Origin: a virus
DNA length: 5,700 nucleotides
Direction: 5' to 3' (one strand)
IMG/VR virus record: IMGVR_UViG_3300017732_001625
Coordinates: 1 to 5,700 of that record
In this document: positions 1 to 5,700 of the stretch, piece by piece
How the letters are laid out: each line of letters starts with the position of its first letter
How positions within the stretch are numbered: the stretch's first letter is position 1
Position numbers and translations under genes: made by a program
Notes under the pieces: generated by a model
What the model saw: only the letters and a program-made list of their open reading frames with translations
What the model was told of the DNA's origin: nothing
Database searches by the model: none

Positions 1-123
1 ATGTAATTTCCCTTGGTATAATCTTATTGGACATTCGAACACATCTAATTGCACTTTATAACTCCCGAATAATGGCCCTACTGTTGGCAATGTTTTCACA
101 TCGCATTCTAGGTCTATATTCCA
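1..123. repeat. Terminal direct repeat, copy 1: identical to 5578..5700. This is a circular-genome wrap-around, giving a unit length of 5577 nt.
   Basis: Base-by-base comparison: 1..123 (atgtaatttcccttggtata...ggtctatattcca) equals 5578..5700 with no mismatch. The repeat lies inside the VP1 reading frame, so it is an assembly or linearisation overlap and not a biological repeat. Confidence 0.97.
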
Positions 124-291
124 TGAATCTCCCGGGAGAGCCAACTCACTCATGAACGGCACTAATGTCCCACTACTCATAGAACTTCTCCATATATAAC
201 TCAAGTCATGTGTACTTCTTGAATAGTTTTTTAGACTTACTTCTTGTTTATTTCCCGACCCTAGGCGGTCTCCTCCAATTGTTGTTTTCAT
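1..291 (-). CDS. VP1: Major capsid protein VP1 (Microviridae F/VP1 family), N-terminal part, continuing across the circular junction into 3829..5577
   Basis: Hand translation of the minus strand from ATG 291..289 gives MKTTIGGDRLGSGNKQEVSLKNYSRSTHDLSYIWRSSMSSGTLVPFMSELALPGDSWNIDLECDVKTLPTVGPLF. An in-frame TAA lies just upstream at 295..297. The frame is continuous with the 3829..5676 ORF because 121..123 equals 5698..5700. The N-terminal pattern (RSTHDLS...GTLVPF...LPGD...D...PTV.P) is typical of Microviridae capsid proteins. The ORF track misses this part because it runs off the window edge. Confidence 0.9.
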   Translation of the reverse strand, partial: MKTTIGGDRLGSGNKQEVSLKNYSRSTHDLSYIWRSSMSSGTLVPFMSELALPGDSWNIDLECDVKTLPTVGPLFGSYKVQLDVFECPIRLYQGKLH

Positions 292-294
292 CTT

Positions 295-312
295 TTATTT
301 AATTTATTTAAT
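295..312. repeat. Perfect tandem duplication of the 9-mer TTATTTAAT (2 copies) in the 25-nt spacer between the orf101 stop and the VP1 start
   Basis: 295..303 and 304..312 are both ttatttaat. On the coding strand this gives AAATTAAATAAATTAAATAAAAG immediately before the VP1 ATG. A related string, AAATTAAATAAAGAATAAA, precedes the VP2 ATG (3166..3184). Confidence 0.6.
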
Positions 313-316
313 TTGG

Positions 317-622
317 TTACTTTTTTTTTAGTTTCTCTTGGTCTAATTTTTCATTTAATATCATCATTACTTGAATAATTCTATCCCATGTAATTTTTTC
401 TAAATCATCTTTTATTTTTTTAATACTATTACTTTCTTCTGTAATTCTGTACTGTCCCATTACACCAAAGTGTTTTTTATTTACTGTTATAATCGTAAAT
501 GGTGAATTTTTTACATCAACTCTTTTTATTAATTCTTTGTTTTTAGATAAAGAGTCTTTTTTGCTTACTCCGTTCGCATTCAATAATGATTTCTTTGACA
601 TTGTAGTTTTCATTGTTTTCAT
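317..622 (-). CDS. Hypothetical small protein, 101 aa, immediately upstream of VP1
   Basis: ORF with an ATG start and a TAA stop at 317..319, 25 nt before the VP1 start. It is on the same strand as all other genes. The central and C-terminal part (SPFTIITVNKKHFGVMGQYRITEE...ITWDRIIQVMMILNEKL) has globular, non-repetitive composition and resembles a pattern I associate with small phage proteins, but I cannot name a family. The first 27 codons overlap the end of orf68, and the exact start is uncertain (in-frame ATGs at 622, 613 and 601). Confidence 0.6.
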   Translation of the reverse strand: MKTMKTTMSKKSLLNANGVSKKDSLSKNKELIKRVDVKNSPFTIITVNKKHFGVMGQYRITEESNSIKKIKDDLEKITWDRIIQVMMILNEKLDQEKLKKK

Positions 623-749
623 AGTTTATTATAGTTTTGGTTTTTATATATTCTCCGTTATTTATTTGGTTTCTTATTATTATTTCTCCTGTTTCTTTGT
701 CTACATATATGCTCTCTGTTTTCCACTGTCTTTTTTCGTAGTTCTTCAT
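543..749 (-). CDS. Hypothetical small protein, 68 aa, overlapping both neighbouring ORFs
   Basis: ATG-initiated ORF on the gene-bearing strand. The coding strand is A-rich, so stops are frequent in non-coding frames, which makes an open 68-codon frame non-trivial. The sequence has a beta-rich look (WKTESIYVDKETGEIIIRNQINNGEYIKTKTIINYE...IIIECERSKQKRLFI). It overlaps orf76 by 92 nt and orf101 by 80 nt. Confidence 0.5.
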   Translation of the reverse strand: MKNYEKRQWKTESIYVDKETGEIIIRNQINNGEYIKTKTIINYENNENYNVKEIIIECERSKQKRLFI

Positions 750-888
750 ATTCGAAAGGGTTTTTATTATTATCTTCTTTATACTGTTTTATTGCTTCTT
801 TTATTTCTAAGTATTTTGCAAATCGTATTATTTTTAATATTACCCTTACTATTACTTTTATTTTTCTTATTATTTCTTTGAATTTCAT
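658..888 (-). CDS. Hypothetical small basic protein, 76 aa, with a cationic amphipathic N-terminus and an Arg/Asn/Lys-rich tail
   Basis: Its ATG (888..886) overlaps the TGA stop of orf69 (887..885) as ATGA, a classic translational-coupling arrangement. The sequence is MKFKEIIRKIKVIVRVILKIIRFAKYL...HICRQRNRRNNNKKPNK. The last ~30 codons overlap orf68, so the true C-terminus and function are uncertain. Confidence 0.42.
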   Translation of the reverse strand: MKFKEIIRKIKVIVRVILKIIRFAKYLEIKEAIKQYKEDNNKNPFEYEELRKKTVENREHICRQRNRRNNNKKPNK

Positions 889-1094
889 TCGGTTATACTG
901 TTTATATATTTTTTATGTCTTTCTATAATTTTATTTTTATTTAACCACTCTATTAATTCTCCTGCACTCATCCCAATTTCATATACTCCATGATTTCCCT
1001 TTTCACTCCATATTTTTCCTTTTATATACATATCATCTAAGTTTGTATACATTTCTTCAATTCTTAATCCTATTTTCTTGATTTTTCCCTCCAT
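885..1094 (-). CDS. Hypothetical small protein, 69 aa, first gene after the non-coding control region
   Basis: ATG at 1094..1092 directly follows the 197-nt intergenic region. The TGA stop overlaps the next ATG. Composition is non-repetitive (MEGKIKKIGLRIEEMYTNLDDMYIKGKIWSEKGNHGVYEIGMSAGELIEWLNKNKIIERHKKYINSITE). I recognise no family. Confidence 0.55.
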   Translation of the reverse strand: MEGKIKKIGLRIEEMYTNLDDMYIKGKIWSEKGNHGVYEIGMSAGELIEWLNKNKIIERHKKYINSITE

Positions 1095-1291
1095 TTTGAA
1101 TTTTTTTGGTAGGGTAGGGGAGGCCTGTATTTCGCTGTATCATTGACATCTTGTGTCATTTTACATACTATATATTATCGGACAAACTACTAATCCATTG
1201 ATAATCAAGCCTTTATCCCTAATCCCTTTTTTTATTTTTGCTAATTTAGTTATTTTCCGCGAATAGCAAAGAGATTTTATCGAAATCTCTG
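1095..1291 (-). promoter_or_regulatory. Main non-coding control region, between the Rep stop and the first small ORF. Candidate location of promoter(s), replication or complementary-strand origin signals and a recombination site.
   Basis: It is the only intergenic stretch longer than about 115 nt in a genome where other genes are 0-25 nt apart or overlap. It contains a stem-loop (1270..1290), an 11-nt palindrome TTGATAATCAA (1198..1208), the short direct repeats ATCCCT-A-ATCCCT (1215..1227) and TAATCC (1191..1196 and 1220..1225), a G-run island (1108..1123) and a dif-like 28-mer (1158..1185). I could not place convincing -35/-10 or Bacteroidetes-type -33/-7 hexamers. Confidence 0.5.
1158..1185 (-). 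other. Candidate dif-like XerC/XerD recombination site (putative attP)
   Basis: The coding-strand reading is TTGTCCGATAA-TATATA-GTATGTAAAAT, with 11+6+11 architecture. Compared by hand with dif as I recall it, E. coli GGTGCGCATAA-TGTATA-TTATGTTAAAT gives 5/11, 5/6 and 9/11 matches. B. subtilis ACTTCCTAGAA-TATATA-TTATGTAAACT gives 6/11, 6/6 and 9/11. The best match is in the normally best-conserved XerD arm. No integrase gene is present in the genome. Confidence 0.35.
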
Positions 1292-1306
1292 CTAAGTAGC
1301 GCTATT
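1262..1306 (-). other. Composite stem-loop spanning the Rep stop codon. Candidate transcription terminator and/or ssDNA structural signal.
   Basis: There is a perfect 8-bp stem, agagattt (1270..1277) with aaatctct (1283..1290), and a 5-nt loop tatcg. It is extendable by gc (1266..1267) with gc (1291..1292) across a 2-nt bulge. An alternative outer pairing is aatagc (1262..1267) with gctatt (1301..1306). The Rep stop TAG is at 1292..1294. The downstream tract on the coding strand (TTGCTATTC) is only weakly U-rich. Confidence 0.35.
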
Positions 1307-2326
1307 TTTATTTAACCTTTCTAGTCTTTTTAAATTTCTTCTTTCGTTTTCGTATTTTTTTAACTCCCAATTCTTTTCATCATTTCCATATCCTAATCTT
1401 TTATTCTTCATTCTCATTTCTTTAAGTAATTTATAGTATTCTTCTTCTCCTTTACTTATATCTACTTTTATTCCACTTATCCATCTTTCTTTTTTATCTA
1501 GTTTTTTTAGCCATAGTTTTTCTCTTTCTTCTTCACTATATATTTTATTTCTATAGTATATTGGCATATTTAATTTTACTCCTTGTCTTGTTGTATATGT
1601 TTCTTTTGTTTCTTCTTCTTTATATTTATTTTTTTCACTATCTTTTCTATCTAGGTATTCTTTTCCTATTCCTTTACTCGTGAATATTTTACTTTGATAT
1701 TCCTTGTGTTTCTCATCTACCTTATTTACATATTTTATTATATAATTAATTGTTTTTTCATTTACGAATGTTCCTATGTATACTTGACCATATTGCCACT
1801 TTTCTACGATGGATTTATCGTCGTTTGTCCACACTATTCCATGCATATGCACTCTTTCTGTATTGTTGGACCCTAATTCGGTTACTAGCCAATGTCTTAA
1901 TGTTTTTCCGAACTTTTTTCTCCATCTTTCGCAGTATTTTCTTACTGCATATCTGCACACCTCATTATCTCTATTATATCCTGTTAGATATTTTGCTTTA
2001 TTTTTTCTCTTAGATTCTTTTAATTGTCCTTTTTTTTCTAGTTCTATTATTGTTTCTCTGTGTTCCTTTGTAACTATTTTTTCTATTTTATTTAAATTTT
2101 CATCACTGAATGTATAAGTTACAAATCTTGCATTTTTATTTGTTCTAATATCTTCTAACAATCTTACTTGCCATTGTCTAGCTTTTTGTTTTCTGCATTC
2201 CATACATTTACCACATCCTGCCGGCACCCATAGTACTCTTTCATCTGTAGCTTGGGGGACGTCTCCCCCATTCTTTTTATTTGCTACATACTTTTTATTT
2301 TTTATTAGTTTTGGATATAAACACAT
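1292..2326 (-). CDS. VP4: Replication initiation protein VP4 (Microviridae rolling-circle HUH endonuclease)
   Basis: 344-aa ORF. It has the MCLYP N-terminus and the Cys cluster GCGKCMECRKQKARQW typical of VP4. RCR motif 1 is ARFVTYTF, the HUH motif is VHMHGIVW (HMH encoded at 1841..1849), and the catalytic Tyr motif is YIIKYVNK (1721..1744). The ATG at 2326..2324 overlaps the VP2 stop TAA (2328..2326) as TAATG. Confidence 0.93.
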   Translation of the reverse strand: MCLYPKLIKNKKYVANKKNGGDVPQATDERVLWVPAGCGKCMECRKQKARQWQVRLLEDIRTNKNARFVTYTFSDENLNKIEKIVTKEHRETIIELEKKGQLKESKRKNKAKYLTGYNRDNEVCRYAVRKYCERWRKKFGKTLRHWLVTELGSNNTERVHMHGIVWTNDDKSIVEKWQYGQVYIGTFVNEKTINYIIKYVNKVDEKHKEYQSKIFTSKGIGKEYLDRKDSEKNKYKEEETKETYTTRQGVKLNMPIYYRNKIYSEEEREKLWLKKLDKKERWISGIKVDISKGEEEYYKLLKEMRMKNKRLGYGNDEKNWELKKYENERRNLKRLERLNKNSAT

Positions 2327-3165
2327 TATTCCATTTTTGTATTACCTAATAAACCATTATTTCCTATCATTCTTGGTTTACTACTATCTTTATATTTTCC
2401 ATATGTATCGAAACCTTTCCATCCTGGTGAGGTTTTATTATTTGTTTTTCCCATTAGTAAACCTCTATACGCTCCTAATATTCCACTTAATACTTGTGTT
2501 CCTAATTTTATCCCAAAGTATCCATATACTCTGTTCATTAGCCACTCTCTATCTTCTAGGTTATTTACCGGGTCTTTTCCTATCACATTCATTGCAGTTG
2601 CAAAGTTATTCCCATCTATATATCCTTTTTTTTCTCTTTTTCTTTTTAGGTCTTTTAATTCTGTATCTACTGCTTTATTTTGTATTTCTTCATTTGTCAA
2701 TTCAGTGTCTACTCCATCTCTTTTAGATCTCTGACTTTTTATGTCCTTTGCTTGTTCTTCCATTAATTTAGCTTGTGCTCCATATAACTCGAATTGTGGT
2801 GCTTTTGGTGCCATTCCTAACCCTACATTTCCTTTACTAGCATTTCCTCCGGTTTGGCTTCCAGTCTGACCCGCTTGACCTCCACTTTTATACATTAATG
2901 CCGGATTTAATCCCGCTTTTCTCATGTGTTCCATTTGTGCACCATAGTTCGTTTTGTTCCACATATCCATTTGAAGCTCATGCCCTTGGTGATTTAATGT
3001 TGCTTGATTTAGCATTTGTTGGTTCATCAAATTTTGTTCATATTGATTCTGTACTCCCATCAGTTCTATTTGATTATCCATTTGTTGACCCGTAGTCAAT
3101 TGGTCGTACAACATTCCTATTCCTTGTGTTGCTAATGCTCCTCCATTATCTTTAAAAAATCCCAT
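2326..3165 (-). CDS. VP2: DNA pilot / minor capsid protein VP2
   Basis: 279-aa ORF between the structural genes and Rep. It has a Q/N/M-rich N-terminal part, then the characteristic block WNKTNYGAQMEHMRKAGLNPALMYKSGG, then a Gly/Ser/Gln-rich linker. A charged coiled-coil-like segment and a hydrophobic Gly-rich C-terminal stretch (GIKLGTQVLSGILGAYRGLLMG) follow. This layout is typical of gokusho/alpa-type VP2. Confidence 0.88.
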   Translation of the reverse strand: MGFFKDNGGALATQGIGMLYDQLTTGQQMDNQIELMGVQNQYEQNLMNQQMLNQATLNHQGHELQMDMWNKTNYGAQMEHMRKAGLNPALMYKSGGQAGQTGSQTGGNASKGNVGLGMAPKAPQFELYGAQAKLMEEQAKDIKSQRSKRDGVDTELTNEEIQNKAVDTELKDLKRKREKKGYIDGNNFATAMNVIGKDPVNNLEDREWLMNRVYGYFGIKLGTQVLSGILGAYRGLLMGKTNNKTSPGWKGFDTYGKYKDSSKPRMIGNNGLLGNTKME

Positions 3166-3166
3166 T

Positions 3167-3340
3167 TTATTCTTTATTTAATTTGTTATATTCTTTTATT
3201 ATTTCACAAGCTTTCATCATTCTATATCTTGTGTATTCATCTATATTTCTGTGATTGAAGTGAATTAAGTCTTCTATTAATTCTATTGCTTTTTTACTTT
3301 CTTCTTTTGTTGATTTCTGTATTTCTCTTATTTCTTTCAT
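3167..3340 (-). CDS. Hypothetical small protein, 57 aa, below the ORF-track cutoff
   Basis: Hand translation from ATG 3340..3338 gives MKEIREIQKSTKEESKKAIELIEDLIHFNHRNIDEYTRYRMMKACEIIKEYNKLNKE, with stop TAA at 3167..3169. Only one nucleotide (3166) separates it from the VP2 ATG (3165..3163). It fills most of an otherwise unexplained 288-nt gap in a tightly packed genome, and its composition suggests a helical, charged protein. Confidence 0.5.
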   Translation of the reverse strand: MKEIREIQKSTKEESKKAIELIEDLIHFNHRNIDEYTRYRMMKACEIIKEYNKLNKE

Positions 3341-3354
3341 AATTTTTATTTTCG

Positions 3355-3369
3355 CGCTTTTTCAAAGCG
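3355..3369. other. Small GC-containing hairpin just upstream of the 57-aa ORF
   Basis: cgcttt (3355..3360) pairs with aaagcg (3364..3369) around a 3-nt loop ttc. It lies 15 nt upstream of ATG 3340 on the coding strand and is not followed by a U-tract there, so it is not a canonical terminator. Confidence 0.3.
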
Positions 3370-3416
3370 TTTCTATTTACTTGATATATAAGTACAGATG
3401 CGTACCACTTGTTTCT

Positions 3417-3438
3417 AATAAAGGGGGATTTCTCCCCC
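3417..3438 (-). terminator. Candidate rho-independent terminator after the VP1 and VP3-like structural genes
   Basis: On the coding strand the sequence is GGGGGA-GAAA-TCCCCC, a 6-bp stem that is 5/6 G:C with a GNRA-type tetraloop (3438..3423), followed directly by TTTATT. It lies 15 nt downstream of the stop of the 120-aa ORF. It is a conspicuous GC island in AT-rich sequence. Confidence 0.45.
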
Positions 3439-3453
3439 ATTTATTTTTATTTA

Positions 3454-3816
3454 TTAGGAATCACTCGTGCCATTTGTTGACTTGGGTTCCCCAACTTTTT
3501 CTGCTTTCAGATTTATTACTTTAGCCTCTTTTTCTGCTTTAGCTTTCTCTTCTTTTCCTTTCGCTTGAGCATCTTTCTTTGCTATCTTACTTGCTTCTAC
3601 TTTGTCCATTGCTTCTGTTGCAATTTCCCATCTATCTGTCCGAATATTATATGCACTTTTTACACCATCTTTTTTATCTGTAAATATTTCCGGTGCCCCA
3701 TCAGTTATAGGTTCGTTATTATTTAATATTCTTTCCAATTTCAATTCAATTGGTTCTCCTTGGAGTTTTTCCACTCCTTTCATATTTGTTCTATGGTATT
3801 TTGGTATTTTATACAT
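3454..3816 (-). CDS. Conserved small Microviridae protein, VP3-like (putative internal scaffolding protein), 120 aa
   Basis: The ATG at 3816 lies 12 nt after the VP1 stop. The block EPITDGAPEIFTDKKDGVKSAYNIRTDRWEIATEAMDKV matches a motif I recognise from small proteins encoded next to VP1/VP2 in gokusho/alpa-type microviruses. The C-terminal half is a K/E/A-rich low-complexity tail. The coding call is strong; the functional label is an inference. Confidence 0.75.
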   Translation of the reverse strand: MYKIPKYHRTNMKGVEKLQGEPIELKLERILNNNEPITDGAPEIFTDKKDGVKSAYNIRTDRWEIATEAMDKVEASKIAKKDAQAKGKEEKAKAEKEAKVINLKAEKVGEPKSTNGTSDS

Positions 3817-3828
3817 TTTTTATTTATT

Positions 3829-5700
3829 TTATAAGTTAGGTATTGTTTTAGCACTCATTTTTCTTCTTGCCGTCATATTTAAGCCAATTTGTACCCAAAA
3901 ATTCTGACTATCTAATGCGCTTTGTGCAAAGATATTATTGTATAATGAAGGGTCTATATATGTTGTTAAATCTTCTATCCCTTGGTCACTGTTTTTATAC
4001 CTTCTATTTAATGTCATAAACATCTCCTTTGTTTCTATAGCAAAGTTTCCTCTTGTCACATTAACATTTGTCATGTAGTTAATCCATGCCGGTTGTTTAC
4101 CCGCTGAACTATATGTTACATCTCCATTATTTTCTATTACTGTATCTTGCCAACTTAATTGGTCTGTTACTAAATCTTGCCATCCTATCTGACTTAGTTG
4201 AGGTTTATGGAAATCATTCATAGTTTTTAAATTCATGTTCCATTTATTACCTTGACTTGTGTCTATTCTTGGCGTTAATGATACTATTCCTATTAAGAAT
4301 GAAGGCTCTGAGCATTTTATACTCATTCTTCCACCTTTATGTTTTCCCGTCAATTTTCCTCTTCCTGCTAATGTTCCTAGTGGTTGACTTTCATTATCTA
4401 CTAATGTGTCACTATTTGATACTACTTCTTGAAATGCTAGTTCTTTTATTAGACTTCCATGATATACCGGGCTTTCTACACTCTTTGCTCTTTCATGCGT
4501 ATATACTGCATCTAACCAATCGTCATAACTTCCTCCACTTACTGCTATTCTGTTTAACATATCATATACTTTCTGACTTAAGTTCAGCGCATCCATTTTT
4601 ACTACATCATCACCTATTGAGTTTTGCACCACTGCTACAGCAGATTTCTCCCCTACTCCGTTTGTTCCGTCTATCCATTCTGTAGATATCCAATTGTTAA
4701 ATAAGTCGCTTTGATATGTTTTTAATCCTAATCCTTCTTGTCCACTTTTACAATATGCGTTTTCATAATCTCCACTATCTGCTCCGTTTACTGTATCTAA
4801 AGGGGGGCCATATGGCGCTTGACTAGTATAGTCTAAATTAAAAGCAGCTGGACTTGCTACTGCTTGTAATATATCCTCTTTCATTTCATCTATATTCGTT
4901 AGAGGAAATCTTTTTACCTGTGGGATTCCTGTTCCCGGTTCAATTATATTTTCTACTACTGTTCCATTTGTTAACGTACATGTATAGTTACCTTGTGGAC
5001 TTGCTTGGTAACCTGTACAATATATTCCTCCACCTGCTGTACCTGTTTGTGTCCATATTACACTACTGAACATATCTGTTATATTTATTAATGACCCTGC
5101 TACATTTATTTGTATATTATTTGGATTCGGTTCTCCTTCTACATCTCCTGAATTATACCATGAACATATTATAAGTAATGTAGTATTATTCCCTAAGTTT
5201 ACTGCTGCACCTCCTGCTGACGATATACTTGTATATGACCCTGTGTTACTATTTATCATTCCTGCTCCACTTGTTTCCCATTCATTACTCCAATCATTTT
5301 GATGAATATAATATCCGTTTTCTTCAGATAAATTTGCATAATATTGCTTATAAATTTCCCAATATCCCAGATATGGTACTGCATTAAATTTTCTAGTAAC
5401 ATCACCTAGCCTATCGTTATATGTTCTTCCTAAACCTCTTATATTTAAGTAACTAAATATACTACTTGGGTTTACTTGCATATTATCATTTATATTGTTT
5501 GGGTCATATTGTCCTACCATTTCCATTTGAGGTAGTTTTATTTCTCCCATGTCCATACCTATGTTCAGCATATTCATATGTAATTTCCCTTGGTATAATC
5601 TTATTGGACATTCGAACACATCTAATTGCACTTTATAACTCCCGAATAATGGCCCTACTGTTGGCAATGTTTTCACATCGCATTCTAGGTCTATATTCCA
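3829..5700 (-). CDS. VP1: Major capsid protein VP1, main body. It is open to the window edge; the true start is ATG 291 via the circular junction, total about 679 aa.
   Basis: It is the largest ORF, and the frame stays open upstream of 5676 (WNIDLECD) to base 5700. Recognisable Microviridae VP1 blocks include PTVGPLFGSYKVQLDVFECPIRLY, AVPYLGYWEIYKQYYAN, GLGLKTYQSDLFNNW, PLGTLAGRG and FLIGIVSLTPR. The stop is TAA at 3829..3831. The 'M' at 5676 in the track is a GTG codon (cac at 5674..5676 on the given strand) inside the frame, not the real start. Confidence 0.95.
   Translation of the reverse strand, partial: WNIDLECDVKTLPTVGPLFGSYKVQLDVFECPIRLYQGKLHMNMLNIGMDMGEIKLPQMEMVGQYDPNNINDNMQVNPSSIFSYLNIRGLGRTYNDRLGDVTRKFNAVPYLGYWEIYKQYYANLSEENGYYIHQNDWSNEWETSGAGMINSNTGSYTSISSAGGAAVNLGNNTTLLIICSWYNSGDVEGEPNPNNIQINVAGSLINITDMFSSVIWTQTGTAGGGIYCTGYQASPQGNYTCTLTNGTVVENIIEPGTGIPQVKRFPLTNIDEMKEDILQAVASPAAFNLDYTSQAPYGPPLDTVNGADSGDYENAYCKSGQEGLGLKTYQSDLFNNWISTEWIDGTNGVGEKSAVAVVQNSIGDDVVKMDALNLSQKVYDMLNRIAVSGGSYDDWLDAVYTHERAKSVESPVYHGSLIKELAFQEVVSNSDTLVDNESQPLGTLAGRGKLTGKHKGGRMSIKCSEPSFLIGIVSLTPRIDTSQGNKWNMNLKTMNDFHKPQLSQIGWQDLVTDQLSWQDTVIENNGDVTYSSAGKQPAWINYMTNVNVTRGNFAIETKEMFMTLNRRYKNSDQGIEDLTTYIDPSLYNNIFAQSALDSQNFWVQIGLNMTARRKMSAKTIPNL
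5578..5700. repeat. Terminal direct repeat, copy 2 (identical to 1..123)
   Basis: Same comparison as for copy 1. The match runs to the last base of the window. Confidence 0.97.

Follow-up and report, generated by a model that had tools for sequence, protein, structure and literature searches.

A dif-like site of an integrase-less marine microvirus, conserved in its clade, is a candidate attachment site for host XerC/XerD

Introduction

Can a single-stranded DNA phage that encodes no integrase enter the chromosome of its host through a copy of the host's own dimer-resolution (dif) site? The question is raised by a 28-mer in the control region of a small viral genome, recovered as IMG/VR record IMGVR_UViG_3300017732_001625 and analysed here as a stretch of 5,700 nucleotides (positions 1 to 5,700 of that record; hereafter, the window). 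An earlier note on this DNA, made from the sequence alone, had read the 28-mer as dif-like and had proposed that, if real, it would mark the attP of a temperate phage. Little is known about which hosts marine microviruses infect or how they live, and such phages are usually counted as lytic.

Several elements are already known to borrow the Xer machinery. The Vibrio phages VGJphi, TLCphi and CTXphi exploit host XerC/XerD and dif without an integrase, using attP sites that are imperfect on the XerD side; in CTXphi two inverted sites are folded together in the single strand. Changes on the XerD side are generally held to spare such elements from being resolved out again. The plasmid sites cer and psi need about 180 bp of accessory sequence, and the spacer of cer is 8 bp long.

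Among microviruses, Xer-dependent lysogeny of the kind claimed in the earlier note has been demonstrated by experiment in the enterogokushoviruses: EC6098 integrates reversibly beside the host dif in an XerC/XerD-dependent process that needs xerC, xerD and both arms of the motif, and prophages of this group show an imperfect XerD-side pattern (PMC7062461). It has also been inferred for Bacteroidetes proviruses, with Xer-dependent integration proposed for the Bacteroidales microvirus proviruses BMV1-7 (Alpavirinae) (Krupovic & Forterre, 2011, PMC3091885). The PhiCjT23-like ssDNA prophages of Flavobacterium are flanked by dif, and their use of Xer has likewise been inferred (PMC9719478). Searches of microvirus genomes with dif profiles are now routine.

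Materials and Methods

Similarity to the sites of Kono et al. (2011) was assessed against part of their list, supplemented by k-mer counts over about 640 dif sequences. The Bacteroidota dif references are computational predictions, those of Flavobacteriia sitting very near the GC-skew switch in the portion of the Kono et al. (2011) table that was used, and the names XerC arm and XerD arm were assigned by analogy with E. coli. Matches in the genome were ranked with five position weight matrices (PWMs) and compared with dinucleotide-preserving shuffles.

Relatives of the window phage were gathered by scanning IMG/VR with VP4 and metagenome contigs with a VP1 alignment. Counts of the site refer to 77 contigs in which VP4 was at least 50% identical and the region downstream of VP4 was present.

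Results and Discussion

Genome and placement of the window phage

Bases 1-123 of the window are repeated at 5578-5700, and this 123-nt terminal redundancy shows that the window represents a circular genome of 5577 bp, in which every gene lies on the minus strand (Table 1). The gene content, with a VP1 capsid protein, a VP2 pilot protein and a VP4 initiator on a circle of about 5-6 kb, is that of an Alpavirinae-like member of the Microviridae. The 615-aa VP1 entry in the mechanically compiled ORF list is a truncation of the full protein of 679 aa, and the remaining genes in that list are a 120-aa ORF, a 57-aa ORF and several small ORFs. Scans of nine ORFs against Pfam and PHROGs recovered only capsid, pilot and replication proteins and found no integrase or other recombinase domain, as the earlier note had maintained of this genome.

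Contigs of about 5 kb from marine metagenomes and viromes yielded many VP1 homologues of 57-68% identity, and contig L081 is the same phage as the window (100% identity across the part of VP1 covered). The closest VP1 match in GenBank was 55% identical, with gut Alpavirinae-type genomes and Parabacteroides phages next at 42-47%, and megablast of the window genome against GenBank phages gave no match. By this pattern of VP1 homology, the phage is assigned to the Alpavirinae-like lineage as an uncultured marine member; the known hosts of the lineage are Bacteroidota.

Table 1. Positions of the features discussed in the window and in Cellulophaga phages.
Feature	Source	Position	Strand	Basis and remarks
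Main intergenic (control) region	Window	1095..1291	-	VP4 stop codon to next small ORF; ORF list, alignments; holds the 28-mer
dif-like 28-mer, putative attP	Window	1158..1185	-	Sequence, dif identity, PWM and shuffles, conservation
XerC-type arm TTGTCCGATAA	Window	1185-1175	-	
Spacer TATATA	Window	1174-1169	-	
XerD-type arm GTATGTAAAAT	Window	1168-1158	-	Position 18 is G; host-invariant base is T
Conserved C-rich box CTCCCCTAC	Window	1114..1122 (wider 1108-1123)	-	Alignments A2, A3
Hairpin with 8-bp perfect stem, AGAGATTT-loop-AAATCTCT	Window	1270..1290	-	Directly after VP4 stop codon; sequence, DNA fold
VP4 rolling-circle replication initiator	Window	1292..2326	-	344 aa; Pfam PF23343, PHROG 942
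VP2 DNA pilot protein	Window	2326..3165	-	279 aa; PHROG pilot-protein families
VP1 major capsid protein	Window	3829..5700	-	679 aa; wraps the circular junction, true start at window position 291; translation, homologues
dif-like site, Cellulophaga phage	L175 (KC821606)	5139-5166	-	
dif-like site, Cellulophaga phage	L176	5166-5193	-	
dif-like site, Cellulophaga phage	L178	267-294	-	
dif-like site, Cellulophaga phage	L177	1121-1148	-	

A dif-like 28-mer that chance does not explain

The 28-mer was found exactly where the earlier note had placed it and with the 11-6-11 arrangement described there. On the minus (coding) strand it reads TTGTCCGATAA-TATATA-GTATGTAAAAT and has the layout of an Xer core, with inner inverted repeats (ATAA ... 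TTAT-like) between asymmetric outer arms. A recount against dif of E. coli (XerC arm 5/11, spacer 5/6, XerD arm 9/11) and of the B. subtilis type (6/11, 6/6 and 9/11) agreed with the hand counts of the earlier note, and both reference sequences are present in the part of the Kono et al. (2011) list that was used.

A different picture emerged for the XerC arm, which the earlier note had called the weaker one. Compared with the dif sites predicted for Robiginitalea, Gramella and F. johnsoniae in that part of the list, the 28-mer is identical at 24/28 positions and its XerC arm at 9-10/11. Comparison with a dif collection, as far as that part of it extends, thus pointed to Flavobacteriia as a plausible host class, and the previous guess of Bacteroidales or Firmicutes shifts on this match to Bacteroidota of the Flavobacteriia type. 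Within the same material, the predicted dif of Flavobacteriia, Cytophagia and Sphingobacteriia follows T(T/A)GTCCTATAA-TTTATA-TTATGT(T/A)AAAT, and the window site departs from the Flavobacteriia consensus in the spacer (TATATA vs TTTATA) and at position 7 (G vs T). Corynebacterium, whose dif in the sites consulted has an identical XerC arm, was considered as a host and rejected as implausible on GC content and phage lineage.

Under all five dif PWMs, the window site was the top match in the circular 5577-bp genome. It scored 24.2 bits with an 11-site Bacteroidota PWM, against 6.5 for a runner-up 3.4 kb distant, and 26.6 bits with a 38-site, five-phylum PWM, against 8.3 for the runner-up, which amounts to a lead of about 18 bits over the next match in the genome. 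The ranking was unchanged, with the window site first, under three PWMs that contained none of the 11 Flavobacteriia-type sites.

Dinucleotide-preserving shuffles, a check that the earlier note had proposed, attained the window score in 0 to 4 cases per 1000 depending on the PWM: 0/1000 with the 11-site Bacteroidota and 38-site PWMs, 0/1000 with a PWM built from Chlorobi, Chlamydiae, Actinobacteria and E. coli/B. subtilis sites, 1/1000 with a PWM from which the 11 Flavobacteriia-type and the Chlorobi sites had been removed, and 4/1000 with a two-sequence PWM of E. coli and B. subtilis. None of 1000 shuffles reached 24/28 identity to any reference dif. Taken together, the shuffle and PWM results exclude chance and therefore answer the worry that AT-rich sequence might yield such matches falsely.

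Conservation, position and orientation in related marine microviruses

A dif-like site scoring 17-32 bits is present in 63 of the 77 contigs, always in intergenic sequence 40-290 nt past the VP4 stop codon (106 nt in the window), and is missing in 14. The 63 carriers have 33 distinct variants of the site, and mean pairwise identity is 81-85% in the 28-mer vs 56-63% in the 100 nt on either side. In one relative (L089) the 28-mer is identical to that of the window despite identities of 55% in VP4 and 62% in VP1. Sites of the relatives match dif of the presumed host class, in the part of the Kono et al. (2011) list that was used, at 24-27/28 positions, the non-palindromic outer XerC arm included. 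Related, AT-rich microviruses outside the clade act as natural negative controls and top out at 2-11 bits; the nearest GenBank relatives (from flamingo, Ciona, Antarctic and spring water) are without a dif-like site. These comparisons support the view that the window 28-mer is truly dif-like and is kept by purifying selection.

Relative to the genes, 49 of the sites are inverted, with the spacer TTTATA, and 14, the window site among them, are co-oriented, with the spacer TATATA or TTAATA. Both orientations are tolerated and a double-stranded recombination site therefore fits, whereas a promoter, a terminator, a nick site or a hairpin in ssDNA does not.

The two arms have fared differently. The inner XerC sequence (T/G)ATAA is retained in 33/33 variants, whereas the inner XerD hexamer TTATGT, which is invariant in hosts, is changed in 32/33, mostly to C or G at position 18. 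That position is T in 38/38 reference dif sites drawn from part of the Kono et al. (2011) list, and k-mer counts over about 640 predicted bacterial dif gave ATTATGT 510 times and both ACTATGT and AGTATGT 0 times. Set against the 11 host dif of that partial list, the consensus of the 33 phage variants differs at position 18 and at position 2, the latter being variable among hosts. This asymmetry, with XerC kept and XerD altered, argues against drift in copies of dif and for a consistent modification of the phage sites on the XerD side. As in an attP, then, the site is non-coding, conserved in relatives and imperfect in one arm.

The same motif in unrelated ssDNA phages

A scan of IMG/VR for the G18 variant (G at position 18) also retrieved genomes far from the window clade. 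One of these, L169, is a circular microvirus of 5065 nt with an identity to the window phage of 19% in VP1 and 27% in VP4; its motif, TTGTCCTATAATTTATAGTATGTAAAAC, is intergenic at 1761-1788 on the minus strand and, judged by these identities, looks like a convergent acquisition. Another (L173) matched Cellulophaga phage phi12:2 with 100% identity. This ssDNA phage is in culture, infects the flavobacterium Cellulophaga baltica and has structural and replication genes unrelated to those of the window phage.

In phi12:2, phi48:1 and phi18:4 the intergenic region between gp10 and gp11 contains TTGTACTATAATTTATAGTATGTAAATT, with G at position 18. Omtje_3 has TTGTCCTATAATTTATATTATATACAAC at the same place, where T is kept at position 18 and the XerD arm is altered further out. 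The sites of these Cellulophaga phages (Obscuriviridae) score 23-26 bits and are of the Flavobacteriia type. Phage phi18:4 produces plaques with turbid halos and has no lysogeny genes (PMC11946311); no mention of the dif-like site was found in the published accounts consulted.

The occurrence of the motif in Cellulophaga phages ties this type of motif to a known Flavobacteriia host and speaks for convergent use by unrelated phages. We put forward, tentatively and as something short of probable, the wider proposal that a dif mimic with an altered inner XerD arm (C or G at position 18) is a convergent signature of unrelated ssDNA phages infecting marine Flavobacteriia, shared by the Alpavirinae-like clade, the very distant microvirus and the Cellulophaga Obscuriviridae. 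If this were true, many marine ssDNA phages deemed strictly lytic could adopt an integrase-free, Xer-dependent lysogenic or carrier state, and the motif could serve to link uncultured marine microviruses with hosts among the Flavobacteriia.

Search for integrated copies

Integrated relatives, which the earlier note had suggested looking for, were sought in 185,579 species-representative genomes, first with the single VP1, which gave no match, and then with a 35-sequence VP1 alignment; no integrated member of the window clade was found in these genomes, and the two VP1 motifs used in the scan are invariant within the clade. No prophage of the clade occurred among the best 80 of 341 metagenome matches, which were phage-sized contigs only, and none was found in IMG/VR, where pattern scans for the G18 and C18 phage variants returned unit-length genomes and no integrated copy. 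Lysogeny in the window clade, if it occurs, would therefore be rare, transient or poorly captured by assemblies.

Long contigs with VP1 homologues (P0089, P0115, P0067 and P0078, together with all those above 5.9 kb) were considered as prophages and rejected as concatemers or chimeras. Many public contigs of the clade (L073, L075, L076/L114, L077, L025/L124, L095 and L112) consist of related genomes joined head to tail or as chimeras, reach 19.8 kb and could pass wrongly for prophages or large genomes.

An IMG/VR scan for the perfect host-type dif returned three contigs that are not microviruses and no microvirus prophage. In these contigs (L078, L079 and L080; 9-40 kb, GC 29-35%) the perfect host-type dif TTGTCCTATAATTTATATTATGTTAAAT lies at 8538-8565, 313-340 and 320-347, respectively, about 350-740 nt from a contig end; such a dif may belong to host DNA flanking a provirus call or to a different Xer-exploiting element.

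The sole match of the 35-sequence alignment was a distant one, a microvirus prophage of 6.3 kb (L074, JAZREU010000025) in a Paludibacteraceae metagenome-assembled genome, with a VP1 38% identical to that of the window, so that the search was positive only outside the clade, with junctions downstream of VP4. The prophage sits between bacterial genes for Lon protease and an aminotransferase, and two dif-like sites, at 8521-8548 and 14815-14842, form direct repeats 6294 bp apart that enclose the phage genes and have in common CTAATTGCAA.TATGT.AAAT. The reconstructed attP, TTATATCCTAA-TTGCAA-GTATGTCAAAT, is downstream of VP4; its position 18 is G, against T in the reconstructed host site. By analogy, and only at a distance, this prophage supports the position and design proposed for the window site.

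A putative attP for host XerC/XerD

We propose, with a probability of roughly 0.6, that the 28-mer is an attP through which XerC/XerD would integrate the double-stranded replicative form at a dif of the Flavobacteriia type. From the match to predicted dif we infer that it mimics the host site and that the host is most likely a member of the marine Flavobacteriia. After infection the single-stranded genome would be converted to the double-stranded replicative form; host XerC and XerD would bind the phage site and pair it with the chromosomal dif; and the whole 5.6-kb circle would be inserted beside dif, making a phage integrase unnecessary. The resulting state would be lysogenic or pseudolysogenic, reversible and probably of low frequency. 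A host-like XerC arm and spacer, combined with an imperfect inner XerD arm (G18 in the window), suggest that strand exchange would take place on the XerC side, and comparison with other Xer-exploiting elements suggests that one of the two sites flanking the prophage would be a poor substrate for normal dif resolution.

The attP reading, which we favour, has precedents in other microviruses and in ssDNA prophages of Flavobacterium. Counting against it are the failure to find an integrated clade member in the searches above, the lack of a site in 14/77 relatives and in the nearest GenBank relatives, the departures of the window site from the Flavobacteriia consensus in the spacer and at position 7, and the reliance on dif references that are predictions. 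The conclusion of the earlier note, that the phage is temperate and this is its attP, is thus upheld as regards a conserved dif-like site in an integrase-less microvirus and goes further than the searches as regards integration in the clade.

Elements of this kind are already known, and what is new is that a dif mimic of the Flavobacteriia type is found in an Alpavirinae-like clade of marine phages. Like the window phage, EC6098 is a microvirus that lacks an integrase and has one 28-bp dif-like motif, located in a short stretch of non-coding DNA; the motif is host-like on the XerC side (in EC6098 the spacer and XerD side are more variable) and clade-specific and sporadic in distribution (PMC7062461). 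EC6098 belongs to the Gokushovirinae and uses an Enterobacteriaceae dif, whereas the window phage combines an Alpavirinae-like marine clade with a Flavobacteriia-type dif; prophages of the EC6098 group are abundant in genomes and their mechanism is experimental, whereas none was found for the window clade, which is known here from sequence alone.

BMV1-7 and the Paludibacteraceae prophage are nearer in descent, sharing with the window phage a related capsid lineage (VP1 about 38-47% identical), the order VP4-(small ORFs)-VP1-VP2, the lack of an integrase and a dif-like att downstream of VP4. Their hosts are Bacteroidota. They are seen integrated and have more degenerate dif-like sequences of the Bacteroidales type, whereas the window is a free marine genome with a site of the Flavobacteriia type. 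The PhiCjT23-like prophages and the Cellulophaga phages have host class and dif type in common with the window phage, the Cellulophaga motif being almost identical to that of the window, but the virion and replication modules of PhiCjT23-like phages and Obscuriviridae (lipid-containing, with a Rep_trans initiator) are unrelated to its own.

VGJphi, TLCphi and CTXphi are filamentous, and the window phage is a microvirus with one site. The earlier note had invoked both CTXphi and VGJphi; the first analogy fails because the window genome has one site only, and a double-stranded route like that of VGJphi and TLCphi would be the better fit. A CTXphi-type single-stranded attP, with two inverted sites in a hairpin, was accordingly rejected: no second site was found in the genome, the runner-up being the match of 6.5 bits already mentioned.

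A genuine and conserved site need not serve integration. Like cer and psi, which are also Xer core sites on small circular replicons, it could keep the replicative form monomeric or episomal, in a carrier state or pseudolysogeny, and never engage the chromosome. This would suit a clade in which the site is conserved and yet no integrated close relative was found; double-stranded function independent of orientation fits it equally well, the conserved neighbouring boxes could be accessory sequences, and persistent circular genomes without integration were seen by Kirchberger and Ochman (PMC7062461). However, the flanks of the site are 56-63% identical and not alignable across the clade, leaving no shared accessory region of about 180 bp such as cer and psi need. 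Rolling-circle termination by VP4 produces unit-length circles in the Microviridae, and resolution is not obviously required. A systematically crippled XerD arm is, moreover, a hallmark of integrative Xer-exploiting elements, and the integrated relative L074 has an equivalent site as its att. We regard a role in keeping the replicative form monomeric or episomal as unlikely. That the site is an unused relic of a temperate ancestor or of imprecise excision, in a phage now effectively lytic, appears quite unlikely: the failure to find integrated close relatives, the sporadic loss in 14/77 relatives and the deviations of the window site from the Flavobacteriia consensus (spacer and position 7) all agree with decay, but a relic would decay at the intergenic rate, and here, over 33 variants and at protein identities as low as 55%, the flanks have changed far more than the site; the changes in the XerD arm of the site are specific and recurrent and point to selection and not to drift.

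It is very improbable that the 28-mer is a signal for transcription or replication (a promoter for the downstream small ORFs, an origin or a hairpin) that resembles dif merely as an AT-rich quasi-palindrome. The site does lie in a control region beside a conserved C-rich box, and a sigma-70-like promoter can be read in it (TTGTCC, 16 nt, TAAAAT; 9/12 matches), but promoter-like sequences are not above chance in number (2 found vs 1.5 expected) and Bacteroidota promoters follow a consensus different from the sigma-70-like one. A strand-specific signal would not tolerate the inversion relative to all genes and the packaged strand that is seen in 49/63 sites, nor would an AT-rich quasi-palindrome account for an identity to host-class dif that, within the sites consulted, extends to the outer XerC arm. 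The motif is also present in unrelated phages whose replication proteins differ, and the region folds with only marginal stability (z = -2.1). Integration at the host dif remains our preferred reading.

The conserved dif mimic argues that the window clade is able to use the host Xer machinery, and its specificity for a host class offers sequence-based host prediction (Flavobacteriia). Host and lifestyle of marine ssDNA phages become testable through the position-18 rule, the tolerated inversion and the presence of the motif in Cellulophaga phages. Cellulophaga baltica with phi18:4 or phi12:2, in which the motif is present, is a ready experimental system, and the change at position 18 of the XerD arm provides a concrete, testable rule for a possible escape from normal dif resolution.

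Other features of the control region and genome

The control region that holds the 28-mer is, at 197 nt, the largest non-coding region of the window; the earlier note had taken it for the only real one, and 3341-3453 is non-coding too. The C-rich box CTCCCCTAC lies 35 nt downstream of the 28-mer and is invariant across relatives with the same orientation. In L001 and L029 a similar C-rich box is found on the opposite side, inverted along with the dif-like site, and the box may be part of the same module. The hairpin that follows the VP4 stop codon is also present in L036 and is probably a terminator or structural element separate from the dif-like site.

In four relatives (L035, L036, L038 and L042) the full site is preceded, about 45 nt upstream, by an additional and perfect half-site of the XerD type, TTATGTAAAAT (alignment A2, columns ~264-275). 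The window has no such half-site, which might act as an accessory XerD site or be the scar of a recombination event.

The composition of the coding, presumably packaged, strand is extreme across the window, at 46.6% A, 22% T, 20% G and 11% C. A 25-nt repeat, 84% identical between its copies and containing the palindrome GGGGGA-N4-TCCCCC, occurs at 2254-2278, inside the N-terminal coding region of VP4, and at 3423-3447, in the non-coding stretch 3341-3453. Beside the latter copy, at about 3355-3371, is a further hairpin, GCGCTTTTTCAAAGCGT, and the repeats and this hairpin may be origin or terminator structures.
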